A stretch of 64,000 nucleotides of DNA from Lingula anatina (lineage: Eukaryota; Animalia; Brachiopoda): the NCBI GenBank assembly GCA_051362555.1, contig CM120647.1, positions 18,080,651 to 18,144,650 of the forward strand. The letters are read 5' to 3'. The position numbers were made by a program, and so were the translations under genes. Below, piece after piece: positions 918 through 46,900 of the stretch; the first letter of the stretch is position 1, and every line of letters starts with the position of its first letter. The notes beneath the pieces are model-generated. The model was not told the DNA's origin. It saw nothing but the letters and a program-made list of their open reading frames with translations, and searched no databases.

Positions 918-3900
918 TTCCAGAGATACAGCCACGTGACTACAAGCTCTACAGCAAAAGTCACATTCCGGGGATTCTCAACACTTATTTGGAGAATCGG
1001 ACCAATCTTGACCCACTTTCGTACGTCGCGGCAGCAAGCGTGCTGCCCATGCGCACTAACAACTACGTGGTAGAAGACCTCATTGATTGGTCCAGCGTTC
1101 CCAATGATCCCATTTTCCAGTTGGTGTTCCCACAACCAGGTTAGTCAGTTGACAGTATTTTGCAATACAATTATTATTATTATTATTATATTTTACATGT
1201 ACATTCTCACGTGAAACACGTCTCTTACGAAATTCTATGCATTTAGTACAGAAGCAGTGTTCCTTTAAAACCGCACCAAAACAGCGTCAGTTACCCTCAA
1301 ATCTCGGAGTAATTCCTCGTTTCAGGTATGCTGTCGGAGGAGGGTTTGGCGGACGTGCGCGACCTTCTACGACGTGGAGTGACCCGTACCGTTCTGAGAG
1401 AAACAGTGGAAAAACTAAGGTATGGTTGCAGCTGGCCCACGAACGCTTTCCAGCTTTGTGACGTCATACTAGAATCGGTGACCAAATACAGCACCCTTAA
1501 AAGTTACGCGTTGTTAAACAAGGTACAGAAAAAAAAAGACGTTTTGAAGGTTCTTCATGTACAGCGCAGGCCCTACTGAATTTTTTCTCAACATTGCAGG
1601 GCGGAGCTTAATCCACACCCAGCCAATCAGAAAACTCTAAACGTACCACGAGTCAATGGTCAAGAGCTTCCCGGCATGCAACACAAGTATCGGGAGACGG
1701 TCCTGTTCTTCCCTTCTGAAGGCCAGTTTTGCCAGGTAGGGATATATACAGCGGCTGAGTCAAGATTCGTCCCGTAAATACAGTGCATTTAGTACTAGTC
1801 TATATGAGGTGCTCCTCAATATCGTTTGAAACCATTCTCATGATTGCGAGTGTACACGTTATTTATGTTTAAAGACTTTGTCAAAAAAGTCTAAGACGTA
1901 AACATCGAAGACTGCTAACGACAGTTAATATCCCCATTTTAGTAGATTGTCAGTAAAAAGCATAATTCTTTGTCCTTGCAGAATAATTTATACCTTCTAA
2001 CCAAAAAGAAGGCCTCTGTTGCCGGCAATGAGGCCAATTTTATCGTGACCTCTTTGAAGGGACTGGCTTGTCTACTGAGCTGTACTCACTAGCATTCTGA
2101 GCCGTAGCAATAGTCCGAAGGTTCAATAGTCCGAAGGTTCATTGGTCCGAATATTCACTATAGAACCTTCGGACCAATGAACCCTTGATTAAAAAATCGA
2201 TGAAAATGTTACCACTTTTCGGACCAATGAACCTTCGGACCAATGAACCTTCGGACTATCGAGACGCCCCCATTAACAGCTGTTAACTATGAAAGTCGTA
2301 AGCCTGTGACCACTTTCTATAGATCTGTGAACAGAAATGTCTCAGCCCGGTTTGGATGGCGGCGTTGTGAACACATTACAACGTGACGTCAACATTACGT
2401 CATGACGTCACATGTATGCCGTCAGTTTGTCAGTACATGTGCAGGGTACTAATAAGGCTAATTTAATGTAATTTCAGGCTTTTTGCACTTACTGTTTCCG
2501 TTGGGCCCAGTTTACATCTGTGGGCAGTCAACAACAGTTTCAGAGCACTGACGGGGACCTTCTCCGGGCATACCTGCGCACGAACAAGTGTGTCAGCGAT
2601 GTGTTGTTCACTGGTAAGCTGTGATAGATGTTTTGGGAGAGAGGGAAAGAGGGAGAATCAATGGCGTGAACACCTTTATGCTTTTCCAAGAACGTGCATA
2701 TGCGCAAGTACACGTAGGTTCTACAAGTACATTGTATACCCGACGTGCTTGCCATCGGTGCCCAAATTTCAAGAAGGGCCTAGTCAATTATCAACCCAGT
2801 GTTTCATTTCATATACACCACTGATGGTAGAAATATCTGCACATTAATATTATAACTAAACATTCGTTAAACACACTTATGTCTGATTTCTGGCTTAATC
2901 CAGGTGGCGATCCCATGGTAATGACGGCTCGTCAATGGCAGCGGTACCTTCTTCCCCTGATCAATGACCCGACACTGGACCACGTGGCCACTGTCCGCAT
3001 TGGCACCAAGTCCATCGGCTACTGGCCATACCGGTACATCTCGGATTCGGACTCCGACGACATTCTGTGGTTCGTATTGACCTTTAAGCCAGGCCCGTGG
3101 GCAGTTGGGTTCGGGGTGGGGTCGAAAGAGAAGACCTGAAAAGGTCTAAGTCAAATTTCAATCTAGGGTCTGTACCATTTTTCAAGCTTGAGGAGGGGGA
3201 AGAAAAGCCCACTTTACCGAAAAAAGAAACCCCCTTTAAAATTGCTGGCTACAAACTTATAATGCTGTTATCACCTCACGATATTTTGACCACAAAAGAC
3301 AACGAGAAGACGTTACCAGTAACCTTTTACGTTTTTTTTTTCGCAAAACAGAAAAAAATTAGCTAATAAAACATGTACCACCACTAAACTAATTAATTAA
3401 TTAATAAAGGAAGCGATTTTGTCATTCCTTTTAAACGAAAAATATTGTCTTTTGCGCGTTTCAGGTTGTTAGAAAGAGTGGTGAAATCGGGTAAGCATCT
3501 GGCCATCATGAGTCACTTCTCGCACCCGCGAGAGTTGAGCACTCCTGTCGCCCAGGAAGCCATTAGACGTATCCAGATGACGGGCGCGACTATCCGCGCA
3601 CAGGCGCCACTGATCAGACACGTGAACGACAACCCGCAGACGTGGGCGGATATGTGGCGGTTGCAAGTAAGACTTGGAATCATCCCCTACTACATGTTCG
3701 TGGAACGAGACACGGGCGCAAAACATTACTTCGAGGTTCCGTTAGCGGAGGCTGTGAAGATCTACCAAGAGGCCTCGTCGAGCATCTCCGGTATCGGGAG
3801 AACGGTTAGGGGACCGTCGATGTCAGCGTCCCCCGGGAAATTGCACGTGCTGGGTACCGCCACGCTCCAAGGTGAGAAGGTCTTCGTGCTCAAGTTCTTA

Positions 3901-4107
3901 CAAGGGCGGAATCCTGCCTGGACGGAGAACCCATTTTTTGCTCAGTACGATCCCAAGGCAAGCTGGCTCAGCGACCTCAGACCGGCCTTCGGGGAAAAGA
4001 AGTTTTTCTTTGAAGACGAACTTGAAGAGATAGAGCGCGCCGAGACGTCATCAGGGGCGCTGTACCCGTACCCTGAGGGTATGGAATACAAAAACATGAT
4101 GCTATGA
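918..4107 (+). CDS. kamA: KamA-family radical SAM protein (lysine 2,3-aminomutase-like), spliced; exons 918-1139, 1326-1419, 1600-1735, 2478-2613, 2904-3069, 3465-4107; first coding exon not resolved (candidate ORF 51-189, ATG at 51 or 114)
   Basis: Six exons join in phase through GT-AG introns to give about 465 aa with no stops. Motifs: LNPHPANQ..NVP, GMQHKYRETVLFFP, CQ|AFCTYCFRWAQF (CxxxCxxC), VLFTG|GDP, RIGTK, HFSHPREL, QAPLIRHVND, PYYMFVERDTG, GPSMSASPGK (candidate PLP lysine). Confidence 0.9.
2108..2262. repeat. Small foldback/MITE-like element made of inverted 16-bp subrepeats
   Basis: Left arm repeats (aatag/attgg)tccgaaggttc. Right arm carries the reverse complement tcggaccaatgaacct. 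Lies in the intron that splits the radical SAM motif. Confidence 0.65.
3090..3252. mobile_element. Degenerate copy of the caggcccgtagc MITE family (see 42519-42685)
   Basis: Shares caggcccgt..., tcgaaaga, aaaaaagaaaccccctt and aaattgctggctac with the complete copy. Confidence 0.6.
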
Positions 4108-5057: not shown

Positions 5058-5753
5058 CTACGTTTTTCTCATGGCAGCCATAGTATTGATTTCCCAGATA
5101 ACCGTCCGCAGCTGGTCTATTATTTCCTTCAGATGGCGATTCTTGTTTCTGATTTGCTGAAATGGTACAACAAAGGAAATGGGTCGATTTTAAGTCGATT
5201 AAACCCGGAGAAACAAGAAAAAGGTCTGGACTTACTAGAACCTGAGACAAGTTGTATTGGCCCTGATATGCAAAGTGTTCAAAGATAAAGATTTTACAAA
5301 GTGTTTTATAGAATATTCAAAGGCTAACATTAATGCCACAGGTAAAGAAAATTCCTGTTATTTACCAAGGTCAAATATTTATGAAATTTCCAACTGGTAC
5401 GCTAGTAGAATATCACAAAATATGGAAATACTAGAATATCAACTTAAGCTATCTCACTGCTTTATATAGTTAATATTAATACACACACATGTAGTCACAC
5501 CTAACACATCTGCTGCTACATCAATGTTTTACATACTACCACAACTTATGTTCACAACATCAAACACACTGTCACACCGCAGGTATCTCACTATTTCTTA
5601 TATTGTCACAACTAACACAATACATCACACAGACATACACCCATTATCTCTCAGTCACACCTAACACAGTGTCACACTGACCTCTGCTATTTGTCACATC
5701 TTACACACAGACACCTGCTCTCTCTCTATTACACTTCACACAATGGCCTGCTT

Positions 5754-5801
<48 letters not shown>

Positions 5802-7133
5802 ACCTCTGCTATCTCCCTGTGTTCTTCAGAGGAGTATCTAACTGCTTCTGTGGCATGAGCTCCACCGTCATCAACCTCTGGACCATTGATGTATGGGATC
5901 AGACTCTATAACAAATTTTACAGGAATATAATCAGATGGCAATAGACCAGGCCAAGAAAAAAAACAACTTTCCCCTGAACTTTGCCTTCACTGTAAATAT
6001 TATTTCTTAATTTTTAATTGTTTTTTCAACAAAAATGAAAAATAGGAGAAAAAGAGGGAAATTCAAATCCCAGCTGGAGCTTTGTTCTAGAATCATTCTC
6101 AAGCTAGTAGATGAAATGAAAGAAATTAATTTAAATGTCAAGATTTTCACTTATGTCTATCTGATATGCCTCTGATTAAATGTCCACTGTTCATTTTAAA
6201 TTAATTTCTTTTTATTTCCCTTTTATATCTCGACTCCTGACCTACCGAATAATCCCAGTTTACATGTGCACTTACTTCTGTCTGTTTGGTATCAAAATGC
6301 TGACATATTTCCTGGACTTTGTTATACATTAGGCGTAGTTTCTTAAATGAGACCTGTATGGCTTTCATGTGGTCCTCCAACTTGGCCTTCTTATCCTGGT
6401 ACATCTGTACACTGTTCCCTGCTGTATTGTTAGGAAGCTGCGGAACACAATTAGCACAGTAATTATTCGCAAATTATAAACATTTCATTTATTGTATTTT
6501 TTTATTTCAAGAGCTTCGGTACTCATACCCAGGTTTTACTGAAACTGAGGCAAAAGTAAGCACACCACCTGTGCTATATTTTAGGGCAATACTTGCAACA
6601 ATGAAAGCCAAGATTTGTAGTTTCTGTGAGCTCACATCATTTAAAATGCACTGTGTCTGACTCTAAGAGAGACCATGAACTGCCAGAATTGTGTATCTAC
6701 CAAATGCACTTTTGGTTTGGGAGTCAAACCCACATGAACACAATATGAAATCACAGACTCTAGGGGACATGTGTCCTAAAAGACCATATAGGATTTTGGG
6801 CCAATTTCTTAAAGTACCAACCTTCAATTGGTGAAGAACTTGAAATATTTCCAGTGTTTTCTGCACTATTTCTTGCACTGTTTCCTGGCCTGTCTTGCAC
6901 AGTGAGGCTGTGTTTACGTCTTTAGTTGGAGAGGCCAGCTGTGTCTGACCTTGACCTCCCCATGACCCCTGACCTTGATGCAGAGATCCCTGGTGGCTGT
7001 CACTGAACTGTTGTTGTAATGATGGTGGTGGTTGCTGATGCATCGCTGTGCCACCTGGTTGATTGTACTGTTGCTGCTGTTGTTGCCGTTGCTGTTGATA
7101 CTGGTACTGCTGATATGGCCCTGGGTTTGCCAT
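5058..7133 (-). CDS. MED30: Mediator subunit 30; exons 7133-6822, 6437-6276, 5905-5804, 5156-5058
   Basis: Spliced translation: VNTASLCKTGQETVQEIVQKTLEIFQVLHQLK|LPNNT..KLEDHMKAIQVSFKKLRLMYNKV..E|SLIPY..|QIRNKNRHLKEIIDQLRTVIWEINTMAAMRKT*. Matches the MED30 pattern, with a Q-rich N-terminal extension. Confidence 0.93.
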
Positions 7134-7724
7134 TGTGGTATTCTTAAAGCAAAGAAAACAAATGTGGCATACTGCTTCATTTATCCATTTATTTATTATT
7201 ATTCATTTTTTAAATCAGTATACACTAATATACACAGCTGTACCAGTTCAGGCATCAGTATGACAAAAATGAATAAACGTATCAAAATAGGTCTCCATAT
7301 ATTGATTGCTATATATAACCGGGCCCCATATATAAATTTCACACACGCAGATTTCCCCTAAAATACATGTGGCACGCCCCATGTGGGATACTGATTAATT
7401 TTCATTAAAACCAACGACAGTACTGTACATGCGTACGTACGACAACTATAAATTACTGCCGTTTTATTACAGACTTCACAGGCAATAAAAACATATAGTT
7501 TGATCGAGGAACGCAGCTAAAAAAGTGGACATTTATCACTGAATGCAATACATTTTTTAGGTTTCTTAAACATATGCATCAGGTCACTGTGCTGGCACTG
7601 ATGCACCGTCTTTGAATCTGGTCATTTTAAATGTAAAGTTAAAATTCAACAGAAATTATCTAGACGAAGAGAAATGCTTTCAGCTGAGAACAATGTCAAG
7701 TGATGTAGCACTTTTTATGCTTAC

Positions 7725-8090
7725 CGCACTGAGCCGGCTCTTGGGCGATATAGCAGGCCGATCAACTTATGCTAGGAGAAATAACTACCGGGCACACACA
7801 AAGCACTTCAAACCATGGGCGCCGCCATTTTTATTCTGGCATTGAGGCTTGAACGAGAATTTGCAAATCCTCAAATGTTTTAGGGAAATACCTTGAACAA
7901 TGTCTATATGTTAAATATCATGATTTATTTGGTTCAAAATATATTCTTTTTTGTCTTAAGAACCGCCTTTATTACAGATATAGTCCCCCGTCTCTGGTGT
8001 CCTTGTGCGAGAAAAAACGAGATTTGAAGGAAACCACGCCATTTGCCTATGATCTCAAGGTTAGAGGTTCGAGTCCCAGCAAAGCGTAAA
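7725..8090. promoter_or_regulatory. Probable bidirectional promoter between MED30 (-) and GTF3C2 (+)
   Basis: Head-to-head genes and locally CpG-rich sequence. YY1-like GCCGCCATTTT at 7821-7831 and CGCCATTT at ~8037. Candidate MED30 5'UTR donor (cttac on +) at 7720-7724. Confidence 0.6.
8066..8077 (+). promoter_or_regulatory. Isolated RNA polymerase III B-box (GGTTCGAGTCCC) in a tRNA-3'-half-like context
   Basis: Exact match to the GGTTCGANYCC consensus. No A-box or acceptor stem visible. Lies about 360 bp upstream of the GTF3C2 ATG. Confidence 0.7.
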
Positions 8091-8438
8091 GTTACACGGT
8101 TAGTAAAATTTACTGTTCATCATGTATCATTTTAATCTTTTTGGCAAGAATCGTTCCATTTAATGTCGTATTCATGTGTGAATGATATTGATACGATAAA
8201 TAAGGCACAGGGAATGTTGAACTGTTGAGTGTTGGGAAATCGTACATTTTAAATATAATACTGCCCATGGAGTAATAATTAAAGTACAATTGCAGTGTGT
8301 TACATCAGTTATTAGCGCTGACACCACCTCTGCAGCTGACATATTGTTCAACACCAAGCATTTGCAAATTGAATTTAATTATAGGACTAGTCTGGTCAAG
8401 TGAACCAGAGCAGAGTGGCTATAAAGAAGTGCCTTGGC

Positions 8439-10697
8439 ATGGAAGGCAGCAGTAAACCTGGAGAGAAGGGTCAGACAACTCTAACGGAGGGGGACCATGA
8501 CCGAGTTGAGGTTTGTATCACAAGGTGCCCTATTGAGTGAAACCCGACTCAATGCAGCTCCTACAACACCACAGACTTTTAATTATAAATTAATGAAATA
8601 CTAGTAAGCCGTCATTAATAATTAATTGTAATTTTGATTATTAAAATAATTAAAATTAATTAATTTATTTATTGGTGTCTGTTAATCCCAGGTGGAGAAC
8701 CAGGTGAGTGATGCCCCCCTCCTCCAGACAAGGCGTACTGGGCAACTGACCCAAGTCAAGTCCTCCCCTCCCACCAAACCTGGACCAAGGTGGGAGAAGG
8801 GGGCCCATCATAAAGAGATGAAGAAAATGAATGGTAAGTTGATTGTTTTGATATTTTGTCTTTTTTTCTGAATAATAGCAATAATCAGGGATGAGATTTT
8901 TTTGGGGAGCCAAAATATCATCAGTCTTCTCTAGGCGGCTCCCTGGACCCTTCATCATATTTTCCAATTTTTTCACAAAAGGCAGTTTCATAATAAAAGA
9001 ATAGATAATTGGACTTAAAAGATTTGGAAAATGGTTTTTGATTAAGATTTTGTGAAAATGAAAAAGATTATACAAAATGTGGTAAGAGAACTAGATCAGG
9101 TGAAATTTTGTCTTCTGGTTTGACAAAGAAAAATTTGAGAAATCTCCAAAAATTGAAAAGACAAATCCTGTTTCTTGCACAACAGGTGATCAAAGCCCTA
9201 CCACAGTAGCTAAAACCAAGGGGGAAACTGACTCTGAAAGTCAACCACATAAAACAAAACCAAAACATGCCCTTGTAAGCTCACCAGAAGCAGTAAGGGG
9301 AAAAGTGCCAAAGAAACGAGGCAGACCACCAAAGAACAGAACAGTAGAGGGCACTCCCCACCAAGATGAGACCACCCCTGACTCTCAGAAATGTTTAAAT
9401 GGATCAGGAGCTGGCAGATTAAGTGGCACAGGTAGTTCTTCACTCATTGAAAGTGGCAGTCCAAGTAATAGTGGAAATGTTGAAGTGCATGGCAGCAAAA
9501 GGAGGAGGGTTCAAAACAGAAATTCAAGTTCTTATCCTGAAGATACAAAGAACACAACTCAAAGTTTTTCTGAAAGTAAGGAATCTCAAGAAGACAGTAG
9601 CATGTGTGAAGCTTTTGATGAGAAAGGAGCAGAACATGAGGGATTCGAAAAACAAAGAGATTCAAGTGAGAGAAAGCGACGCGGAAGATCTTCAAAGAAG
9701 TCTCCCCTTAAGACAACTTCCTCATCTGATGACAGAAATGCATCTGACAATCCAGTATTGGAAAATAGCCAGTTAACAAAGTTTTTAGATTCAGTGCATG
9801 AAAATTCTGACAATTTGACTTTGTCTGGGAGGAAACGGAAGAGAGGACGTCCCAGGGGTGAAACGGGTGCTAGCACTGCTCAAAGGGAAGTGGAAATACA
9901 AAGAAGTCCTACTGATTCAAAGGTAGAGGAGAATGCAGATCAGACATCTGTGGCTAAAATTGACAATACACATGATGAAGATACTCCCACTACACCTGTT
10001 ATGAAAAGGAAAAAGGGACGGCCCAGGAAAATTCAACCTGATAATTCTGTGATTGACAGCTCTGTTATTGATACTTCAAATGAAGGGGTGGGTTTAAACG
10101 AAAAAAGTGAGGATGTGAGTATAAGGGGGAGGGTTAGGAAAATAGGAGGCAGCACTATCATAGGACAAGACAATAAGCAGGAGTTAAACATTGATGACTT
10201 GGAGGATCATATGGATGAAGATGAAGATGGGATAGATGGGGACACTTTAGAAATGCAAACGTCTACCCCTAGGGGGAGGGGCAGAGGAAGGGGGCGGGGC
10301 AGTGGGAGGGGGCGGGGCAGAGGAAGGGGGCGGGGCAGAGGGAGGGGCAGTAAGCAGGTGTTAAACATTGCTGGTTCAGAGGATGATGTGGATAAAGATG
10401 AAGATGAGAGAGATGGGGACACTTTAGAAATGCAAACATCTACCCCCAGGGGGAGGGGCAGAGGAAGGGGGCGGGGCAGAGGGAGGGGCAAGGGGTGTGG
10501 TATTCCTTTTCCTGGAAATCAGTCTCCAATATCTGACACCAGTGGAAGGGGAAGGGGGAGGGGACGGGGAAGAGGCAGAGGAAGAGGAGCTACGCCTAAG
10601 AAAGATGAATCTGAAGTAAGTATATTCATTTAGTGCAGTACTAGCATTCATAAGGAAAAAAATAATTTTTATACCTTATTCTATTTTTCTTCTTACG

Positions 10698-10729
<32 letters not shown>

Positions 10730-13700
10730 GAGAGTGATGATATCTTACCTTTCTGTCAAATATTTTCACTGTGGTGATTGTTGGAATTATTTGTAAACAA
10801 TGCATATAGGAATAGGAATTTTGTAGTTCAGTTGTACATTTTATTGGTGCTTCGGGTATTGCTGCAGTTTGAAATAATTAGCAACACATGTTGGCATTAG
10901 ACTTCTAGTGTACTAATAATAAGATTTAAAGATAAATTGTATAAATAACTCACTTAATGCTTAGTGTCTCTAGAGATTATTGTTGGGAGATTCATTTTGC
11001 ATAAAGAAAATAGAGCTTTGTATGAAGCATTAGTTAAAACTAGTATTATGCCTGTTTTGGATTTGTAGTTTGAGAAGAATTGTCCCCACTGTAAGGAGGA
11101 ATTTGCAGTGCTGCAGAATTTGAAACGCCATTTGATGGTTGAACATGCGGCCTTGGTAATGAATCCGTTTTGTTTTGCAGTTTCCTACTTGAATTTGAAC
11201 AAAATCTTTGAGTTACCCAATAATTTTGTAGTATCCTACAAACCTTTACAAACTTTGTCAAAGTGCTCAGTATACCAAGGATATTTAAGTTTGGAAGAAT
11301 ATTATTAATATTTTTTTTTTAATATTCATCATTAAACATCTTATACTAGTTTGTAGATAATTTAATTTGTCAATTGATGCATGATATTTTCACAGCATGT
11401 AATGTAATTTGAATTTGAGTTTATTGTTTTTTATTTGAGATTTTTTAAAGGTTTTTTATTACCCTTTTCAGTGGACCCCTGAAAACCCTAGCGGTGACAC
11501 GGACAGACCTTCACGGCGGAAGATCTTTAAAACTCTCAGGAAGATACATTGCCCACAGTGCAAAAAGGAATTTAAAGTGTTTCCGTACTTTTGCTTTCAT
11601 TTGGACTGGTGTGGCAGGGAGGTAAGAGCTATTTCATTAGAAAGAAGACTTTGTTTGTTATGACAATTTTAAATTTGTGATTGAATCTTTAAAGTAAAAG
11701 GTTAAATCTGTCATTTTTCATGCATGAAGTGAGTATGTGCCTGGGTTGAAGTGAAGTTCTTGTTTGATTTTTCTTGAAAAATGCAATTTTTATTTGGGTA
11801 AATCTTTCTAGGAGGTCTGTTATAATTAAGATATAACAAAATGTAATGTCATGTTTTATATTTTTATACATGTATGATGGAACATGACAACTTAAATAAA
11901 AGCATGGCTTTTGTCTACCTTAAAGGTATTCCTCAGTCTTTGTGATTTCAAATCAGTCAAAGTTGGTGCCAAAATTCAAATCAAATGTGTTTTCAGAACG
12001 AGATGGCGACATGCGACATATGCGGCAAGCAGTACAAAGCAATGTGGTTGCAGGCACATACGCGTGAGGCGCACACGGCCAAGAAGCCCAAACATGGCAG
12101 CGTGGTGACAGAAGAAGAACCAGAGGGGGTAGCTGTCATGGAGGACGAAGGGAAATTAGGACGAGGAAATAAAAGAAAGGCTGCTTCTAAGTTAGTAGAT
12201 ATTAGGTTATGAAAATTTAAGTAAAGCTGCCTCTAAGTGAAGGTGAAAATATAAAAAGTGACTGCCTCCAGGCAATTAGAAAAAAAGTTGTGAAAATGTA
12301 AAAAAGACTGCTTCCAGGCAAGAAGAAAAAAGTTGTTAAAATGAAAAAGTAAGAAGAAAATTAGGTTGAAAAAATAAGAAATAAGTTGCTTCAAGTAAGT
12401 AATTAAATAAAAAGAAGGCTGCCTTAAAGTGAATAAAAATTAGGATGTGATAATAAAAGAAAGGCTGCCTCTAAGTGAGAAGAAAATAAGGTTAAGAAAA
12501 TATTTGAATAAGCTTCATGTTTTTTATTAAATTTCAGGGCATTGACCAATCTCCACAACTTGGCTGCTGATGTAGAAGATGCTTTTCAACAGACAGTCAG
12601 CGAGATGTCTTTATTGAAGGTTTGTATAGGCACAGTCAGAATTAAACCTACTTTGACTTTAATCAATTTGTGGACTTTATTTATTCCACCTTTTACGGCC
12701 TGAATTTTGTCTACCTGCAAGATGTCATAATGGCAGATTTGTACTGAATCACAGTTAAATTCCTGCCTATTCCTGTCTCACCACACCTTCTCTTGACTAA
12801 CCTACTCTGGCATAAATTCCTAGCTATTAAATCTTACCAATATTTGTATCTAATATCTGATTTTATTGACACCTAATGTTCCCCTAATTTTGTCTCATAC
12901 AAGTAACTTAAATCAATAAATTCATCCAAAGACTTGATGCATGATATCAACAACGTAATTATTTTATATCCCTTAGTAAAAATAAAATCCTGAATGCCAT
13001 TTATGAATTTTCCATGTAACATATTAGTTTTACCAGTATTTTATAGAAGAAGGCATTATTTATAATGATTATCATTAAGATGTAACATAGTGTAATTTCA
13101 TAATAATATATATACTTTTTTGCTTTTTCAGAAATTGTTCCAGGCCCCTCCATTGGCAGAAGTGACATCAGAGTTGTTGAGAAAATGGAAAGAAACCACT
13201 GGGCAGTTGGACTGTCCATTCAAGGTTAGTCTTTCAGCCACTGACCAAGCCCTGGTTCACAAAAAAATTAAGTCACTTTCCTGGCTTAGTAGACTAGGAT
13301 TGCCATGAGAGTGCTGTTACACTGCCCCTGATAGGTTAAGATGTGCCCATGTGATCATGTAGCCTTGGTTATTAAGTTCTTAGCCATGGAACCTGACTGG
13401 TAAGCCAGAAATCATGAGTTTACATTATGCAATTTCTGTTTCTATATCCTCGTAATTTTTAACAATGTCTCATCCTGTTTCAGAGTGAAGGTTGTGCTGC
13501 CACCTATACTACAATTCCTGGCATGAGGGCACATTTCGTGAACTGCCAATACAATGGCCTGGAAAGCCACAAGTATGTTTGTTTGGTGTGTAAGAAGGAA
13601 TTCAGCTCCCAGGCATCTGTCATTTATCACATAAAAGGGAACCATGAATGGGTAAGGCTGCACTCGGAACCTGTTTGGTTTAAATTGTTTTATAAAGGCT

Positions 13701-16700
13701 TGTTGCTGAAAGTGGGCATTTTGTTTGTGCTTAGATTTCATGGCCGTGGTGTTGTGGAGGATGTGAGGATTATTGTCACCATATCTTTGACCCCATTCCC
13801 ATAGATTTTAGATCGATCTATTCCTGTGGGGAGTCTCACTAGATTACTGTCAGCTTGGCTGGCTTAAGCGTCTGTCCCGCCTACTAAAAGCTGTAAGGGG
13901 GTAATTAACTATGGTGCGCGCACGGCTGACTGCAATTTAGCGTGAACCCCCTAGGAGTTAGGTCGATCTAAATCAAAATCTCTGGATTGATCTAAATCTC
14001 TGGGAATGCACCCTTTGTTCTCTTTATACAATAGATATTTGTGGGACTTTAGGGCAGAATGTCCTCAGAAGACCATAAAATCTTGTGTAAATCATACTAA
14101 GACTAAATACCTGTAACTTGATTGTGACTGTGTCCCAAAGGCGTGGAAATTATTTAGTAATATGTAAATTGTTGTGAAGTGTTAACATTATGTCATAGAA
14201 TTTTTGAATGCAAAGTTGTGATAATTTCTTGCTTTATCTTAATTTTTGTTTTATTTTTTTCAGGAAAGTAAGAAAAAGAAAAAGACCAAGAAAATGGTAA
14301 GTTTTTTTTCAGAGTAGATCAAATACTGGATGGTAAAAAGATACTATCCCATACACATGTAAGTGAATAGAAATTGAGATATCAAGCTTTAATGCTCATA
14401 ATTAGTCCATACTCACTCTTGTTATGACAAACTTCTTTTAGCCAAAAACTTGGGTGATTTAAGCTAGATCAGAAACATAAGCTAACAAGGTGAAAAATTG
14501 AAGTGATTTACATTTTCCTTTGTGAAATTAATGTATTTTTAGTATTTGGCTTTAAAGAAGTGAACATACAAGAGAGTATCCAGTAAGTAAAGTTCTCCAG
14601 CCCCTAAGTGCGCTTTGGACTTATTCCAGCCTTAACTTGCAGGCAGCAGATGACATGTCAAAATAAGAACCATTCTTCTCCGTAAAATTGGAATAGGTTT
14701 CACATTTGGATAGGATGATTTAACATTCAGGATTGAGTCGAGTTTGTGAAATTGTTCAGTGTTTAAACAAAGTCCGACATTGTTCCAGTGTGAAGACTTA
14801 GACTCTATAGCAGACGACATGTCAGATTACGAACCAAACCAGTCGGAAGCAGAAGAGGAAGAAGAAGATGACGGTTCAAGCGGAGTTTCGGAACACAGTA
14901 TAGGTAAATCAGAAATTGGGAGGAGGGGTGTGTGATTCCATTAGTTGGACATAATTGTCTCTCAATTTATTTTCATTTTATTTTATTTTTTAAATTTTAT
15001 TTTATTTCCTTTTAGTTTAGTTTAGTTTGATTTGGTTTAGTTTAGTTTAGTTTAGTTTAGTTTAGTTTAGTTTAGTTTAGTTTAGTTTAGTTTAGTTTAG
15101 TTTAGTTTAGTTTAGTTTAGTTTAGTTTAGTTTAGTTTAGTTTTCATTTTTGCCTACTTTTGATGTAAATAAACAAAAAGTATAAACAGGCCTACAATTT
15201 ACAATATTTGTCATAAAACATCAAAGTTGAATTTCCTTCTATTTTCCCTGTGTTGCAGCCTCAGAGCCAGAGACAGGCAGCAGGTACTTGAGAGGAGGAG
15301 GAGAGAGACCAATCAGAGGAAGGCGGTGTGACGAGAGAGAGGCCTTCCAATGGGGGCTGGAATTCCATCAGAAATACGACCAAGACTCGGCATTTGTGGA
15401 CTGGGTGCCAAGGAGTGACATGTGGACTGAACTCAGTGCTGAGTAAGTAATTTCAGATGGGGCAGTAGCCATATCTGTATGGGTGCTAGCCATATCCATG
15501 TGGGTGTTAGCCATATCCATGTGGGTAGTAGCCATATAGAAGTGGGTAATGGCCTAATCCGTGCAGGTGATAGCTATATCCATGTGGGTTTTATACAAAG
15601 TCATGTGGGTTGAAGCCAAATTTGTATGAGCTGAAGCCAAAGTCACTCAGACTGTGACAAAATTCTAATCATGATTTTAACACTGCAATTCATATTGGTT
15701 GACAGAATCACATTCATGGCTGTAGTCAATTCATATCACCTTTTAAATGATATCCTATTTCTAATCCAGAGAAGCTGCAGAATATCTTCCAAAGACTGAT
15801 ACCAGCCCCCAGTTTAAGGTGGTCCAGTCCTCAAAGCAACGAGCTACAGATCCTCAGACACTGTCGAAGTTTTCTGCCTGCTCCACTGGTGAGCCTTACA
15901 GATGTTTAATTATTTAAATTGTCATAAAAGTGTTGATTTTTAGATGTTATTGTGGTTTGTACTTTTTTTGGTACCAGTATATATTTTTAATGTTTGTTTT
16001 TCTATCACAGTTATTTATGTCTCATAATATCTAGTACAAATCTGCATGTTTCAGAAAATTCCTTCAGTTTTTTTGTTGGGGGTCCAGTGAAGTCATTATC
16101 ATGGTGTCCTGTGCCAATCAAGATATCAACCTATCAGATGCTGGCTGTTAGTTGCCATAGAGACATGGACTTTGTCAGTCCTGTGAATGGGGTCTACTCT
16201 GACAAAGGATGTGTTCAGATTTGGGACTGTGGAAATTTGGAAAAGAAACAGTAAGTTAAATATTGCATATAAATCTTCAGGAACCATCTAGGGCCTTCTG
16301 TTTGACCAGTTCTGATTGTTTTCAAATATAATTGTAAGAAGTTGAAAATAAATATTAAAAGATCTTTTTGAGAAGATATATATTTTAAAATGATTTTTAA
16401 GTGCTACACGCATATTATGAATCAACACATGCTCATGTCAGAAAGCATGTTTTTTGTTAGTGAAACAATCTAAAAATTGTTTGAAGAAGTAAGGCACTGA
16501 AAAACAGTAGGTGAATTTTTTAAAATTTGAGAATAATTTTATCCATGTTTCTCACCCTCCAGAGTTAGGCTACCCAAGCTGTCCCTAGGTATTGCACATG
16601 AATATGGCACCGTCACCAGCCTAAAGTGGTGTCCAACTGGTGCTTTTATTTCCTCGGATAAGGTATGGGTTGAGGTTATTTATTTTAATGATTAAAATAA

Positions 16701-17993
16701 GCAGAAGAAAACATTTTTTAATTTAAAAAAGGAACACAACTCTGTTTATCTTGTTAAATTTAGTTTGTGTCTCCTTTGGTATAAATACAGCACCAATAGC
16801 CACTATTATTATTTTTATTTATATATTTTATTTTATTTTTTGGAAGTGAAAGCAGTAACAGCAATTCTTTTCACTCAGCATTTCTATAACTATTATTAAG
16901 TTTTTATCTATTAAAAAAGCACTTTTTTTCAGGTCTGTGAGGAAGGAGTTTTACCAAGATTGGGTCTTTTAGCTCTTCTCTGTACAAATGGACTCATTTA
17001 TATTCTAAGGTATGATAGCTTGGAATAGTGATGACCTTTGCAATGTACATTTCCTAATGTTTGTAGGCAAGAATAGAAAAAGTACATCCAAGTTTTTACT
17101 AATGAACTGTTACTTGAAATAGGTATTGTATTCTTCGATTTTTCTTTTCTAGTAAAGTATTTTAATTACATTTTTATACAAAATAAGTTATGATAACTTT
17201 AATTATTTTCCCAGCATTCCTCATCCAGGAAGTCTATCAGAGGTCAAAGGTGACTCTGAGAAAGGGGCCAAAGAAGACTCTCAGAGAGATGTCAAAGTCT
17301 TTCAAGCAAAGCCAACTGTGATATTAGATGCCTTTTACAAAGGTAGGAGGAATACAGGAGATAATGGAGTTTGACCAATTGTTTGGGCCACAACTAGCTG
17401 AGGCAAATGTATCTCAACAGAATTATATGTTTGCGTGTTTGGTTTTTAGCAGGAAAAATAACAGCCTCTGTGGTAACTGTATTCTTTCTCATCACCTAAA
17501 AAGTTAAACTTGGCACATGAATATAACTTGGCATGGTATTGATACTGAGCTCTTTTATATCATTTTTGTAATCACTTGAAAACAGACATATACTGTAACA
17601 GTATCACTGGTACTTTAAGCTAGCTGGGGTCATTACAGCATTAGATATGGTGTCAAACTTGTTAAAAGTTTTGTGTCTGTTTTTGTTTTTGGAATTTGTA
17701 CAATATGGAATAGGGTCTCACTTCACTTAACTAAAGAAACCATTTTTTTCCTTAATCAGTGACTTTTTTAAACATAACAGTACATAACACTGTCATATGA
17801 AAATATGTGAATGTCCTTCCATTTCAGCAGACTGTGATACTGAGAGGATCCAGTGTATATGTATGGACTGGTCCTATAGTGATCTCTCTCTTCTGGCAGC
17901 TGGTCTTACTGATGGTGGGTAGGGTGCTGAATTTCCCCCTTTTTTATTAATCATTAGGTACTTAAATTGCCTATTTCTGTCATGAAAAGAGGC

Positions 17994-18032
<39 letters not shown>

Positions 18033-21000
18033 TGGATACGTCTAGAAATGTTATTGCTGCTAAGATTCCTTAATAAAAACTGAGACAGGTATATTTTGAA
18101 ATGAAGGAAAAAATACCAAAATGAATAAGATAACAGGTACTCATACATATTACCCTTTTCTGCTCATGTAAAGTAATTCCAGTCAGCAATGATTGACTTT
18201 AAGTTAGTTATAAGTGTTTAGTTTGAGATTAGAATAAATATGTTGCAGGATCCTTAGCCATATGGAGTCTCACCACCGCCAGCTCTCTCCTGAAAAATGA
18301 AAATATAGATGGCGTTCAGGTGCTTTACCCCTATCAAGTCTTCAACGTCCATAACTGTTTAGTTCGTTCCGTCACCTGGTGCCCTTTTTCATCCAATCAC
18401 ATTGCCACATCTGGAATGGAACGCAGCGTGAAAATTTGGGACCTGCGTGATCCAGAGAGTCCTTATAATCATAGTTGTACACCTTTGATGAAATTTGGGA
18501 ATATTAATTTCGTTAAGTGGCCAAAGTACTGGTGTGGACTTTACCTGGCAGCTGATGATTTGGCCTGGTAAGTGTCAAAGGGTGTGGTGCATTTCATTTT
18601 TATGGTACACTGTACATATTTAAGGTAGTAAATCTATTACATGTAACAAAAATTATGAGCTCAAGCAGCAAGGTTTTGTTACTTTAACACTTGTAATTTA
18701 TTTAATCTCCCTGATACATTACTTGTGGGTAAACTGTTTATAGTTGATGTGAAAAGTGTAGTAAATTTAGATTAATTGTAAGACAAAGTTCATTTTTTAA
18801 ATATCTTTGTTGCAAGTTTTATCCTATTTATTTTAATAATAAAAATTTTATTAATTTTGGATAAAGTGTTGTTTTTGATACTGTAACACACATCATCACT
18901 GGGAATAATGATATTCGATAATATCAGATGTTCATATGTCACATGATCCATCACATGGCCCATCACATGACCCATCACATGACCCATGCTTTCGACTTCT
19001 ATTTCAGTTTTGGTCGTAACAGTACCAGGTATACAGAGTGTGGTTACTTTGGTTATACACCCAAGACCATCCTGCCCCATAAGTCATTTACCTGGGTAGG
19101 TATTTGTATACAGGGGTAGCGCTAACACTCACCAGTTTAGCCAAATGCTAAAACTTATTTAAATTGGCTAAAGAAAAAGGGCTTGATTTGACTTGTTTTG
19201 TCAAATTATAACCATTTTGATAACAAATTGACAAAAAAAGTGGCGATTTGGCCAAGTGAAACAAATTGCTAGCGCTACCCCAGGTATATATTTATATATC
19301 ACATAGTGCTGTGCTGGGATTAGGATAAACTTACACATAAACCAAAGCCAGTCCAATTAACGTCATAAGGAAAACTGAGTGTGTAAAATAAACCAGAAAT
19401 TCAAAACTTAATTCAAAAAAAAAAAAAAAAAAATGAGAGACAGCTTATTTGGTGCCTTTTAGTGTAAAAAAAGTATGACTCAACTTTTTTGCTATATGGT
19501 TTGTTTCTCTCATGTCATGTCATCTTGTGGAAAACCAGCAGATTTTCAGAAAAATTGTTTGTAATTGTTGATACGTAACTCCATTTGCCCGCCAGAGTGT
19601 CATCATTATAAGAAAAATGTTGCTAATTTTCAAAAAGAAAATATGAAAAGAGGTGACGACCATTCTCTCTCAGTGTTGCAGAAACTTGTGCGAGAATGTA
19701 GGCATTATCAAAATGGCAGTGTCATTGTATTTTGATTTTCAGCACTGTACATGACCAAATGGCAGTCTTGATGTTTAATGTATTATATACTGATTTTGAG
19801 CGCTGTACATTTTTAAAATGGCAGTCTTGGCATATAATAATATAGCTTGATTTTTAGCACTGTATGTTCTCAATGTGGAAGTCTTGGTATTTAATGTATA
19901 TTTTGATTTTCACTACAGTTTGTGTGGGCATTCTCAAAAAGGCAATCTTACACCCCATTTCCATAGATTTTTAGATCGATCTATCCCTGTGGGGAGTCTC
20001 ACTAGATTACTGTCAGCTTGGCCGGATTAAGCATCTGTCCTGCCTAATAAAAGCTGTAAGGGTTTAATTAACTATGGTGCCCGCTCGGCTGACTGCAATT
20101 TAGCGTGAACCCCCAGGGAGTTAGGTCTATCTAAATCTTAATCTTTAGATCGATCTAAATCTCTGGGAAAGCACCCGTGGTGATGTATTGTATATTTTAA
20201 TTTTCAGCACTGTACATTCTCAGACTATCTTAACATGCTGGTGGACTGCGACTCGGCCGGGGAGGTGATGGCATGTGTCCAGCCTAGCCTCATGATGGTG
20301 AACAGGGACACCAAAACCTTTGCAAGGAGACGCTTTGTAAGTTGATAGGGATAGAGAACCAGAACACCGTCTTTGCTTTTGTTGTTCAGTTGCACATATT
20401 TCAGTTGCACAGAGAGGTGGTGGTTGAATAATTGTGTATGTTGAACAGTCTTGTAACACATAGCTATAACACCTATACAATAGGATTTCTTTAGCCAGTA
20501 AATGAGAAATTTCTTTTTTATTGTTTTATCAGTTTTCATTTACAAGCTTTAAAATGATTTCCGGCTTACTCTGTGCTCATAAACTGCTGCATATGTTTAA
20601 TTCATCCCAGTGCATTTTATTGCACATTTTGTCTTCAGAAAATCACTATTAGTTCCGCATTTCTTCTTTCAGAATACATACTGTTACATCATATGAAGTT
20701 AGTTTTGATAAATTGATAATCTTGGTTGATAACATTTCAGGGCATATATCATGTTGACCTGGAGACCCTTAAACATCCAGAGAACCAGGGGCAAGATCCT
20801 TCCTCCTCATCTCAACCTAGAGACAGCAGCAAACACGGGAAGTCAGTCAATGAAAATGGAGAAGAGCTTGAGGAAGCAACCAATCAAGAGGCAACAGAAA
20901 TAGCAACAGCCAATAAGAAAAGCAACCAGGCTACAACAGCCAATAAGACAGCAGTAGATGCTAACAAATCCAAGGCTGTGCCAGTGACTGAAAGTTACAG

Positions 21001-21699
21001 TGATGCAGTGTCAAAATATTGCTTGGTTTTTAAAGAAAAGCAGCTGGTAAGTCAACAATGTACATGTATATCTGGTGGATTTAAAAAAAATACAAAAGAT
21101 TCGAGAAAAAAAAAACCTTGAACATTGGGCTTTAAAAGCAGCAGAGAATTCATCATCATTAAATCTTTGGTTCATGGGCAGATTAGAGTGCAGTAGTACA
21201 TATGCCTATGCACATACATATATATTGAATTTGTATATTTGTATCGTGTTTATTCTAGAGTAACATACGACCTGATCCAAGGCTGCAGAACTTTAAAATG
21301 AACCATGATCACCTGGATCAGTTTCCACTGCAGGCAATCTACCAGGTGAGTCTTTGTCTCTCCCCAAAGATTAGGCAGTTTTCCTTTCATATACTAGTAC
21401 GTCCGCCATATTTAGGTTGTGGCTTTGTAAAGCCATATGGCACAACTTGATGTGAATGTGGCCATATTTGATCCACTGATCTGTTAGTCCCCTGTTCTTA
21501 ATGCGCTCAGTGACAAAGTAAATTGGCCTACTTAAAATGGATATATTCGTGATAACATTTCCAGGTAAGCAGTAACAACAACATGGGTTCTCACCTGTGG
21601 GTCGCCAGCGCGGGACAGTCTGGGATAGTCCGTCTTCACCACGTCACTGGACTGAAGAGGCCGCAGCATGCCAGGATGATGGAAAACACCAGAAAGTAG
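8439..21699 (+). CDS. GTF3C2: General transcription factor IIIC subunit 2 (TFIIIC110/TFC6-like WD40) with N-terminal AT-hooks, RG repeats and ZNF512-like zinc fingers; exons 8439-8510, 8692-8833, 9186-10615, 11472-11621, 11997-12190, 12538-12619, 13132-13224, 13484-13651, 14264-14296, 14789-14903, 15259-15442, 15770-15888, 16055-16250, 16563-16662, 16933-17009, 17215-17342, 17828-17914, 18249-18567, 19008-19095, 20208-20336, 20741-21046, 21259-21345, 21565-21699
   Basis: Exon phases are compatible throughout. GTF3C2-type motifs: DWVP..W..LS.EEAAEYLP, FFVGGPVKSLSWCP, IAHEYGTVTSLKWCP, LPRLGLLA, IPHP, WD repeat HNCLVRSVTWCP..VKIWDLR, and C-terminal AIYQV...WVASAGQSGIVRLH. Confidence 0.88.
13791..14012. 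mobile_element. ~220-bp MITE, copy 1 (copy 2 at 19952-20176)
   Basis: Two highly similar intronic copies. Subterminal inverted motif ccc..agatttagatcgatcta / tagatcgatctaaatctctggg. Confidence 0.75.
15009..15142. repeat. (TTTAG)n microsatellite
   Basis: Directly visible pentanucleotide array in a GTF3C2 intron. Confidence 0.95.
19111..19283. mobile_element. ~170-bp MITE with ggggtagcgcta TIRs (inverted copy at 59685-59861)
   Basis: Termini caggggtagcgcta...tagcgctacccc. The internal sequence recurs reverse-complemented at ~59.7-59.86 kb. Confidence 0.7.
19952..20176. mobile_element. ~220-bp MITE, copy 2
   Basis: Near-identical to 13791-14012. Confidence 0.75.
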
Positions 21700-43900: not shown

Positions 43901-46900
43901 ACTTCACTATTAAAGTTCAACAGTAACTATATGGGTGTATCTCTGCTAGTTTTGGAGATATAAGGGTTGAAAATTTTGCAAAGATCAGTTCATGGTGAAA
44001 AGTAGGTCAAAGGTCAATTTCAGGTTCATTATTAGATTGCCAGTATATGAATACCTATTCAAGTTCAATAGTAACTATGGGTGTATCTTTGCCAGTTTTG
44101 GAGATATAAAGATCAGAAAACTTGGGTGCAGTTCATCATGAAAAGTAGGTCAAAGGTCAATTTCAAGGTCACAGTTAGATTACCAGTGTATGACTTCCTA
44201 TTCCAGTTCAATAGTAACTATGGGCTTATCTCTGCTAATTTTGGAGTATTTCACATTTTCCCCACTGAATATTGCGATGTTGTAATATTTGATATAGGGC
44301 AACGCCTAAACCATATTAAAAACAAAAAATGGACACCACCCCCAGTATTGCACTTGACAAGGTCTACAAAATGCAATAAAAAAGAGGTCTCTGGCATTTA
44401 CCGTTCCAGATTTAGAGCGAGTTTTCAGTTTCGGTATCTAATGGCTGCTTCTCCAGTGAAAATGCACCGATTGACCCCAAACTCTCAAAGATAAAAGGAG
44501 TCCCCAATGGTAACCCCTCACTATAACAGGAGAGCTTAGGGCTGTGTAGTTTCCAAAAATTAGCACAAACAAATATTTTTTTACAGAAAATTCCCATTTT
44601 TAGAAAATTTTGGCTTGTTTGACCTTGAAAAAAAGGTCAAAAGTCAAATCCAAGGGCATATTTGGAAACTCCACATATGACTTTCGGTCAGACTTCTGTA
44701 GTAATTTTTCCCATAAATCCTTTGGTTTGGGAGATATTTAGCATTGAATTTTCAAAAATTTTGACAAGGGTGCATTTCAACAAGTGTCACGCCCAGGCCA
44801 GTGTACCGACAGAGACAAAAAAACCAGGGTGTTCAAGTTGAGATTATATGTGACCTAAATCCAAGAGATGGGGACACAGGTCCTTGCGGTCTAGGAGGAG
44901 AAGCGGTAACAGTGACTTGTTTCCGGCGCCCGACTGTGGAGCCGGCGGAGCCGGCGGAGCTGTACGAGACGGGTCGGGACTAAAACCATGAGTACCGCCA
45001 GCGTACACGCTGGTGGTACTAATAACCAAAAACAACTTAAAAAATGAACTGAAATGACTTTTTCGACATTGAAAAAACTTTTTCAGGTTCACTGTACATT
45101 ATATGACTAAATGACAATAATTAAGGCATCCTATTTGACAATAAAGAACTACATTGTGTTAGCATTAAGCGATTTATCACCTTCCTGTCACTCATGACTG
45201 TCTTTCCTCTCAGAAATTCAATTTTTGCGATGTTCAGCCTGCAGATACGAAGACCATATTCAGGAACGTTGACTACAAGCCCTGAATGCCAGTGAACATA
45301 GGGACTGCGCTGGTAGGATTCATCAAGTGAAGTTTGAAACTGATACAAGCAGCCTTCAGAGAAGTTTACGGTGTTTGGAAAAGTAAAAATGGCTGTGATC
45401 TGGAAACCTAAGAATAATTCATGTGTATATGTATATCCTTGGTTTTGTATTAGGCCAGGCTGCCTCCAGGGCCATTGGTTTTATAATAACAATTATATAA
45501 CATTTATACAGTAGTATAGAATTTCCCAGACCATCAGTGTTAGGAATTAAAAACAACAATTGGATCATTGGAGCCAATCAATGGATCAATACATAGTTGA
45601 ACTGACAATATATTTTTACTGTTTTAAAGCTATTTTTCAATTGTTTTGGGCAGAAGAAATAGGTGTGTTTTTTGATTCAGCTGGGATCTTTGACAAGCAT
45701 ATAGACAATGTTTGTAAGTCGGCATCTTTTTCACTGTGGAGAATAGGGAAGATTCGGAATGTACTAAATATAGAAACAACTGCAAAATTAGTTCATGCTT
45801 TTATTACATCAAAACTAGATTATTGCAACAGTATTCTTTTTGGAGTGAGTGACAGCAAATTGAAAAAAATCCAATTGATTCAAAATTCAGCAGCCAGATT
45901 AGTTAAAAAGATAAGGAACCAGAGCTTGGATCATATCACTCCAGTGTTAAAGGAATTGCATTGACTGCCAATCAAACAAAGAATTTTATTCAAAGTGTTG
46001 TGCATAACTCTTTTGAAAACAATTTTATACTCAATCACTGTGAAATAGACAGAAAATGCAACAAATTCTATGGAGACCGGGCTTTTACTGTTTATGCTCC
46101 AAAATTGTGGAACAAATTGCCTTTTAGTATCAGAGCTGAAAGTGACTATAATACTTTTAAAGCCTGTCTTAAAACTCATCTTTTTAAAGAATTTTATGGT
46201 TAGTGTTCCTTTAAACCTGTTAGTTGTTTATCATTTATTAAGAGCGAGCTTGGGTTAATTTTAGTAGTATTTTAAAGTTATATCAATAAATTTTCTCTGC
46301 TTTCTTTAATTAATTTTATCAGTAAATGTTAAAGTATTTTAGTATTGTTATTTTTAGACTTTTTTAATTATTTGTAAAGTGCATTGAAATGTAAAAAATG
46401 GAATGCGCTATATAAGAAATAAATAAATATTATTATTATTACTATTATTATTATTAAGAAACATGATGGTACAGAAAAAACTGCAGAAATTTCCAGTTCT
46501 ATGATAACAGATGTATTGTGGATATTTTTTCTTGGCAATGAAGAAGTTGTGCATATCAAAAATTATTTGTTAATTACAATAATTTTAACTTTCCAAAGGC
46601 CTACCCTGCAATGCGACTTTAAGGAAAAGTCCAACAATGTGTTTACATACCTGGTATTTCACCCACTGGTAAGTCAGTAGGAGCTGGAAAGGAAGAATGT
46701 TTATTGTATTAATTATGCGTCTTAATCCAGAATGAAGAAAAAATTATACAGTCAGTAATGGATCTCTGTGGAAGGAGGGATGGGAATAGTGAGGGCACAC
46801 ATTGGATACATCTATGATATTGCTATGTATACTGAACAAAAATATAAATGCACGAAAGAATATGTAGATTTGTTTTCATATATGGAACTAGAGTATATAG

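Follow-up and report, generated by a model that had tools for sequence, protein, structure and literature searches.

A stretch of 64,000 nucleotides of the brachiopod Lingula anatina (assembly GCA_051362555.1, contig CM120647.1, positions 18,080,651 to 18,144,650 of the forward strand), referred to below as the window, carries close to its start a gene on the + strand whose product has the fold of lysine 2,3-aminomutase (LAM), a radical enzyme that uses S-adenosylmethionine (SAM) and pyridoxal 5'-phosphate (PLP). The analysis presented here points to an old enzyme inherited within animals, and its active site suggests glutamate, rather than lysine, as substrate. Coding exon A (918..1139) follows an acceptor AG at 916-917, in phase 1, and is the first coding exon in the window. 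Exon B (1326..1419) shows junctions on both sides in RNA reads, and exon C (1600..1735) ends with C149, the first cysteine of the CxxxCxxC motif. C153 and C156, which complete this [4Fe-4S]/SAM motif, are encoded in exon D (2478..2613) together with R158, at the position of LAM R134. The motifs GGDP and RIGTK lie in exon E (2904..3069), and exon F (3465..4107) holds H268, R332 (codon 3706-3708, at the position of LAM D293), S369 (3817-3819, D330 position), K376 (3838-3840, the predicted PLP lysine) and the stop codon. The five introns are all bounded by GT..AG, and the spliced product comprises 464 amino acids plus stop, with no internal stop codons. An earlier note on this DNA had described six in-phase exons, about 465 residues and six sequence motifs, and all six motifs are present. 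The product differs at one residue (N29D) from the last 464 amino acids of the RefSeq entry L. anatina LOC106170480, which exon F used as query recovers at 100%. Exon A has no start codon, and a tblastn search of the window for the 5' exons coding for the N-terminal 16-107 residues of the longer RefSeq isoforms found none; the upstream coding exons encoding the N-terminal extension are outside the window. Some RNA reads map upstream of exon A, in positions 1-917, and in run X18 read starts pile up at position 436, possibly an alternative 5' end for short isoforms that omit this extension.

The gene is a genuine, intact and transcribed gene of Lingula. Transcription was followed in seven RNA runs from three studies, of which 6-30% of each run was read. 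Reads spanning the spliced junctions were found for intron 1 (12 reads, 3 runs), intron 2 (5 reads, 2 runs) and intron 3, which joins exons C and D (19 reads, 4 runs), so that the spliced transcripts on which the earlier note had made domestication depend do exist, in three studies. For the junctions D-E and E-F, across introns 4 and 5, the listed RNA joints give no example; the product nonetheless agrees with RefSeq, and in three runs RNA depth falls to 0 within one bin of intron 4. Stranded libraries place exon F on the + strand and MED30, the convergent neighbour, on the - strand. MED30 (5058..7142, Pfam Med30 PF11315) provides the host context, its own junctions being spliced in RNA reads, and the two genes lie tail-to-tail with about 950 bp between their stops (4107 and 5058), in agreement with the distance of about 1 kb given before. 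Selection was approached through the variants seen in exonic reads: 16 of the 19 listed are synonymous where 23% would be expected (p 3e-8, or p 1e-5 under an assumed 35%), an excess that points to purifying selection. The low RNA depth over the exons, about 1-6x, tempers this picture, and among the indexed runs no RNA run is listed as carrying the gene, the RNA evidence coming from raw reads.

The genomic reads are equally relevant to the status of the gene. Nine DNA runs from three studies contain at least half of the sampled words, although one of them may be the source of the assembly, and in run X1, which looks independent, the depth over the gene is even at 81-85. No long read linking the aminomutase gene to MED30 is shown; the contigs break at repeats. 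Intron 3 contains (2101..2274) a high-copy inverted-repeat element resembling a miniature inverted-repeat transposable element (MITE), with 49-nt arms that are 90% complementary and with 16-nt internal repeats. Its summed contig depth reaches about 3e5, where the flanks have about 83; very high depth recurs in DNA and RNA runs alike, and a joint 2100-2275 in run X1 reveals an empty allele, so that the insertion is polymorphic. The reads of runs X18-X20 (study P7) mostly match the window at 90-99%; they diverge more than reads of the two remaining studies with that species label and possibly come from a distinct population.

The idea of a bacterial gene acquired recently by the brachiopod lineage, or of a bacterial contaminant in the assembly, draws on base composition. 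The aminomutase coding sequence has a GC content of 0.54, 0.64 at third codon positions (GC3), and a CpG observed/expected ratio of 0.94, whereas the values are 0.46, 0.47 and 0.25 for MED30 and 0.45, 0.35 and 0.24 for a large exon of the next gene. The exons are indeed richer in GC and CpG than those of the neighbours, as had been noticed; as a mark of bacterial origin, however, this does not hold, since the introns of the gene (0.96), the upstream DNA (1.11) and an unrelated stretch at 28-41 kb (0.79) are CpG-rich too. The signal is therefore regional, and CpG richness was rejected as an indication of transfer. Gene-body methylation is established in invertebrates, and we infer that the gene lies in unmethylated DNA whose neighbouring housekeeping genes are methylated. 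An identity of 54-58% to bacterial proteins would also fit a recent transfer. The five spliceosomal introns, the host MITE inside one of them, the even DNA depth, the recurrence in runs of three DNA studies and the spliced RNA from three studies stand against it, and together with the phylogenetic results and the introns in common with corals described below they make a recent arrival or contamination exceedingly improbable.

Relatives were sought by a homologue search in which the best 7999 candidates were scored and the top 120 listed. Among the matches listed, the best full-length ones are from Branchiostoma (65%), Acropora (67%) and coral-like proteins, followed by protists and many fungi; the bacterial relatives (54-63% identity) come after the eukaryotes, and the named animals are few: Lingula, Branchiostoma and Acropora. 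The cluster members include Branchiostoma lanceolatum, floridae and belcheri, four Acropora species and the raphidophyte Heterosigma, and a brown alga is also among the holders of this clade. In a FastTree of 334 rows the clade is separated from the classical homologues with support 100, and a 47-row branch (support 100) gathers all the named animals and the fungi with no genome-derived bacterial row; stramenopiles belong to the eukaryotic branch as well. In an IQ-TREE analysis of 64 rows hand-chosen from the 334 (LG+G4), all 31 bacterial rows lie apart from the eukaryotic ones (100/97), the animals form a group (96/98), and so do the fungi (92/92), which divide into basidiomycetes and ascomycetes. 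When Lingula and its sister row P0002 were forced among the bacteria the likelihood dropped by 56.6 log units, a placement rejected by the approximately unbiased test (p-AU 0.007).

Intron positions agree with the trees. They were mapped in 31 fragments of relatives, the phases being read from read-through translations of open reading frames (ORFs), not from DNA. Acropora ORFs depart from the protein where exon A has its acceptor in P0137 and P0141, and at intron 1 in P0139 and P0143, and the position of intron 5 is the entry point of the coral-clade fragments P0168 and P0485 and of P0433, P0441, P0454 and P0463; three positions thus match coral-clade genes. The sharing is incomplete, since one coral-clade gene has no intron 2 of the Lingula type and carries an intron at 146 instead of 150. 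The last-exon fragments P0433, P0441, P0454 and P0463 group with the animals (support 88), so that more animal lineages probably carry the gene.

That the gene has been inherited within animals since the split of corals and bilaterians is thus well supported, and we regard it as very probable. The original source of the eukaryotic branch was probably bacterial, and the animal gene is likely an old, patchily kept eukaryotic gene and not a recent bacterial gift. Of the two origins that the earlier note had offered, the domesticated transfer into this animal gives way before the Branchiostoma and Acropora orthologues, the common introns and the forced-topology result, and its fallback, an ancient gene retained patchily, stands. 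The orthologues that it had envisaged elsewhere in animals were found in these two genera, without the clean species tree that would accompany them, for the sister group of the animals is Heterosigma plus further rows (94/93), not the fungi. This placement weighs against simple descent; the tree was computed with LG+G4 alone, and its bootstrap had not settled (0.967). The placement agrees better with a rather unlikely course of events in which one old bacterial transfer was followed by transfers between eukaryotes, in place of vertical inheritance from an early eukaryote accompanied by numerous losses; the transmission of the gene within animals would be unaffected. The restriction of the named animal matches to three genera and the position of the eukaryotic branch inside bacterial diversity in the larger FastTree speak for such exchanges. 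Against them stand the basidiomycete/ascomycete split within the fungi, the presequence-like extensions found throughout the eukaryotic branch and the weakness of the deep eukaryotic forks (53-61).

The membership of the protein in the LAM-fold radical-SAM/PLP superfamily, proposed before, is confirmed by its structure. The AlphaFold2 model (mean predicted local distance difference test 94.9) has LAM 2A5H as its best fold (Z 34.2 over 328 residues, root mean square deviation 3.4), the next fold reaching Z 14.2, and both marks of the superfamily, the CxxxCxxC motif and a partial TIM barrel, are found; 2A5H is also the sole sequence relative in the PDB. P0001 matched no Pfam family at E 1e-4. 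The finer assignment to the KamA family did not survive comparison with curated models, as the Lingula protein and six relatives fall under the cut-offs of all six KamA-type families. Its scores are 113 bits for TIGR00238 (cut-off 199.2), 91 for TIGR03820 (525.4), 85 for the EpmB family TIGR03821 (369) and 73 for arginine 2,3-aminomutase TIGR04468 (600).

Residue conservation was examined in 325 clade sequences. The three cluster cysteines are kept in 321-322 of them, the Arg equivalent to LAM R134 (R158) in 318, the Lys equivalent to K337 (K376) in 319, and H268 is nearly invariant. R134 and K337 of LAM we take to bind the alpha-carboxylate and PLP, respectively, so this part of the site would be conventional. 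The side-chain pocket is different. At the position of Asp293, which the profile alignment reaches without a gap, Arg is found in 305 of the 325 members (R332 in Lingula) and Asp is absent from the six commonest states; at the Asp330 position, assigned by equal spacing to the Lys, 279 have Ser and 36 Val, Lingula having Ser. The segment 364-376 of the Lingula protein contains no acidic residue. Asp293 and Asp330 of LAM presumably bind the epsilon-amine side chain of lysine, and an arginine at the first of these sites would suit a carboxylate. A distant homologue with 31% identity (L111, 1534-2832), outside the main clade, likewise shows Arg in place of Asp293 and lacks Asp330.

These residues bear directly on whether the enzyme is a true lysine 2,3-aminomutase making beta-lysine. 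Such an activity would agree with the only solved relative being 2A5H, with the label "lysine 2,3-aminomutase" given to the relatives in databases, with the lysine-modifying or GNAT genes at some actinobacterial loci, and with two conserved acids beside R332, E331 (285/325) and D333 (292/325). It is hard to reconcile with the scores under every curated cut-off, with the arginine at the D293 position, with a segment free of acids where D330 is expected, and with a scan of 96 neighbours, taken from 179 neighbour families of the bacterial genes, which revealed no AblB-type acetyltransferase, efp/epmA or kamDE. The enzymes of presumed beta-lysine clusters point the same way. The capreomycidine synthase gene was used as marker of streptothricin- and tuberactinomycin-type clusters, the identity of each cluster being inferred from that gene. 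Among 301 genomes of one actinobacterial genus it was matched in 17, and a full-length clade member in 48; of the 17, five have an aminomutase within about 20 kb and 11 have no linked match at E 1e-8. All five linked aminomutases keep Asp at both sites, lie outside the clade and match it weakly (E 1e-10 to 1e-14), so that viomycin- and streptothricin-type beta-lysine enzymes were rejected as members. In genome G522 a clade member lies 41 kb from capreomycidine synthase, beside TauD and AurF genes. The beta-lysine pathway envisaged by the earlier note is accordingly disfavoured, and a lysine substrate seems improbable.

Bacterial gene context provides the link with glutamate. The best 80 of at least 593 bacterial loci were inspected, 78 of them with a complete ORF. 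A class I/II aminotransferase-fold PLP enzyme lies within two genes of the aminomutase in 8 of the 78, from four phyla, and is 36% identical to the PLP enzyme that adjoins a clade member in a type I polyketide synthase cluster. Apart from this, no conserved operon was found over the 80 loci, other recurrent neighbours being specific to genera. The polyketide cluster just named and a second one, both of macrolactam type, each place a clade member beside a PLP enzyme of fold type I and an adenylation enzyme, for which the best PDB match is 5JJQ, taken here to be IdnL1; the Lingula protein is 49% identical over 418 amino acids to the aminomutase of the second (E 5e-148). The clade member would then occupy the IdnL4 slot of an IdnL4/IdnL3/IdnL1 arrangement. 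According to the portion of PMC11284099 drawn on here, this trio converts glutamate to beta-glutamate and then to 3-aminobutyrate, with genetic and feeding data, and IdnL4 and IdnL3 serve as markers of 3-aminobutyrate macrolactam clusters in the sections consulted of PMC10662134. On this basis the Lingula enzyme is best filed under an IdnL4-like subfamily with a predicted beta-glutamate-forming activity, and glutamate is slightly favoured as its substrate. In the window no IdnL3-type decarboxylase adjoins the gene.

Several points weigh against a glutamate substrate. The alignments to 2A5H stop at residue 321-323, so that D330 and K337 were placed by spacing and by motifs of classical homologues. 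E331 or D333 could replace R332 under a shift of one residue. The clostridial glutamate 2,3-aminomutase family TIGR04368 gives the Lingula protein 76 bits against a cut-off of 650; five genomes screened for the reference clostridial enzyme yielded none above the cut-off. The IdnL4 slot was assigned from gene content, and the activity of IdnL4 itself has so far escaped observation in vitro (PMC11284099). In actinobacteria the Arg-type enzyme also occurs in other contexts: with a non-ribosomal peptide synthetase, in a hydrazine-type setting with a lysine/ornithine N-monooxygenase, with TauD/AurF, and with a metallo-beta-lactamase fold plus a flavin adenine dinucleotide (FAD) enzyme. In P0248 the enzyme is fused to a lysine/ornithine N-monooxygenase. 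Two actinobacterial loci (L098 9681-12842 and L116 6692-9907) contain a trio of TauD-like dioxygenase, AurF-like N-oxygenase and clade aminomutase. Because the contexts are so unlike, the same ancient gene might perform its radical 2,3-amino shift on a different substrate, for example 2-aminoadipate, glutamine or some modified amino acid, or the substrate might vary by sub-branch. The actinobacterial members in these unlike clusters have identical active-site motifs, and most marine-bacterial copies have no conserved partner. Set against this, the motif residues are almost invariant over the 325 sequences, which fits one main substrate, and in the one context for which genetics and feeding experiments are available they indicate glutamate (PMC11284099, as far as the part drawn on extends). 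A different substrate is therefore unlikely, if by no means negligible.

The location of the enzyme was approached through its N-terminal region. At least 70 residues precede the core in 27 of the 47 rows of the eukaryotic branch, compared with 3 of 139 other rows, and the start of 25 of these 27, amphioxus and corals included, is basic and poor in acids, as it is in 1 of the 3 others. The rule applied was our own and crude, namely no fewer than three basic residues and no more than one acidic residue among the first 25. In four protist proteins (P0160/P0006, P0212, P0226, P0235) a 2Fe-2S ferredoxin of the ISC type (TIGR02007, E 7e-18) is inserted between extension and enzyme. In P0413, a eukprot protein, the region fused to the enzyme gives a weak peptidoglycan-binding match. 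The orthologues make a mitochondrial location of the Lingula enzyme fairly probable, and import would answer the problem of oxygen sensitivity. Such a location is less easily read from Lingula isoform P0124, whose start is rich in Arg and still fails the rule (5 basic and 3 acidic residues in 25), from RefSeq isoforms X4 and X5, which have no extension, and from the many ascomycete members that have none either.

A mechanism can be proposed on the established basis of LAM chemistry. The substrate would form an aldimine with PLP at K376 while R158 holds its alpha-carboxylate; the [4Fe-4S]/SAM pair would generate a 5'-deoxyadenosyl radical that takes the C3 hydrogen, and the amino group would move from C2 to C3. 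R332 would hold the side-chain carboxylate of glutamate in place of the two aspartates that serve the lysine amine in LAM. The mitochondrial matrix would provide the Fe-S cluster, ferredoxin as reductant and lower oxygen. The whole proposal, an ancestral coral-bilaterian LAM-fold enzyme that converts L-glutamate to beta-glutamate in Lingula mitochondria, is in our judgement evenly balanced between being right and wrong. The product would be either a metabolically inert solute or a precursor of 3-aminobutyrate. Salt-loving genera, among them Thioalkalivibrio, Halomonas and Idiomarina, supply many of the closest bacterial matches, which is compatible with a solute role but no proof of it. In the part of PMC1224877 used here, beta-glutamate is an osmolyte with slow turnover, known from methanogens and some bacteria, few in number, and early NMR work excluded an aminomutase route in the methanogens; up to 730 mM is given for Nitrosopumilus maritimus in the corresponding part of PMC8269262. 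The same text describes beta-glutamate as isobaric with glutamate and overlooked without separation by hydrophilic interaction liquid chromatography, so its absence from animal metabolomes may never have been probed.

We put forward only tentatively the wider view that the coral-bilaterian ancestor had a ferredoxin-fed mitochondrial glutamate 2,3-aminomutase in common with fungi and algae, and that some marine animals make beta-glutamate themselves. Were it true, a new radical-SAM reaction and a beta-amino-acid pathway would be added to the metabolism of animals, fungi and algae, reef corals and amphioxus included. To our knowledge beta-glutamate has so far been credited to archaea and a few bacteria, and the enzyme class is not counted among the radical-SAM enzymes of animals. 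The "lysine 2,3-aminomutase" label of a clade with thousands of members would be corrected, and new proteins would become available for an activity that has so far defied demonstration in vitro with IdnL4. RefSeq already contains the gene: the Lingula entry is an uncharacterised protein, and those of amphioxus and Acropora bear an automatic label as aminomutase; in the open-licence literature no earlier study of it in animals was found, and the eukaryotic branch of the IdnL4-like subfamily appears to be undescribed in the part of that literature searched.

Beyond MED30 the window contains other elements. A large multi-exon gene at about 7700-21100 on the + strand, head-to-head with MED30, has Arg-Gly repeats, a zinc-finger-like exon and WD40 repeats (Pfam WD40), and resembles a TFIIIC subunit. 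From about 32000 to 64000 on the - strand there are recurring sets of similar EGF-like exons (Pfam EGF at 56153-56635), apparently tandem duplicates, in a region that is CpG-rich at 28-41 kb and CpG-poor further on. A fragment at 45551-46227, judged by eye, resembles the end of a retroelement reverse transcriptase and gave no Pfam match, and one at 47112-47393 is a transposase helix-turn-helix (Pfam HTH_38).

The Lingula enzyme can finally be compared with the known systems. With KamA/AblA of Clostridium subterminale (2A5H) it has in common the fold, CxxxCxxC, R134, GGD, H230 and the PLP-lysine position, but the structural identity is 22%, Arg and Ser replace D293 and D330, and no KamA partner genes accompany it. 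LAM has a C-terminal zinc site; the Lingula protein has no Cys beyond residue 190, and a site of that type cannot form. EpmB (TIGR03821) and arginine 2,3-aminomutase (TIGR04468) share superfamily membership alone with the Lingula protein, which is much longer and far under their cut-offs, and bacterial holders of the clade can carry an extra classical copy. Clostridial glutamate 2,3-aminomutase presumably follows the same logic as the Lingula protein, with a basic residue for D293 and a neutral one for D330; as TIGR04368 represents a separate lineage, the use of glutamate would be convergent. The closest likeness is to the IdnL4 type of the incednine cluster, drawn through cluster members: the Lingula protein falls in one clade with the aminomutases of two such clusters and has the same Arg at the D293 position and the same GP[SV]MS...PGK motif. 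It differs from them in being encoded by a stand-alone, intron-containing gene, with neither cluster nor adjoining decarboxylase, and in its eukaryotic N-terminal extension.

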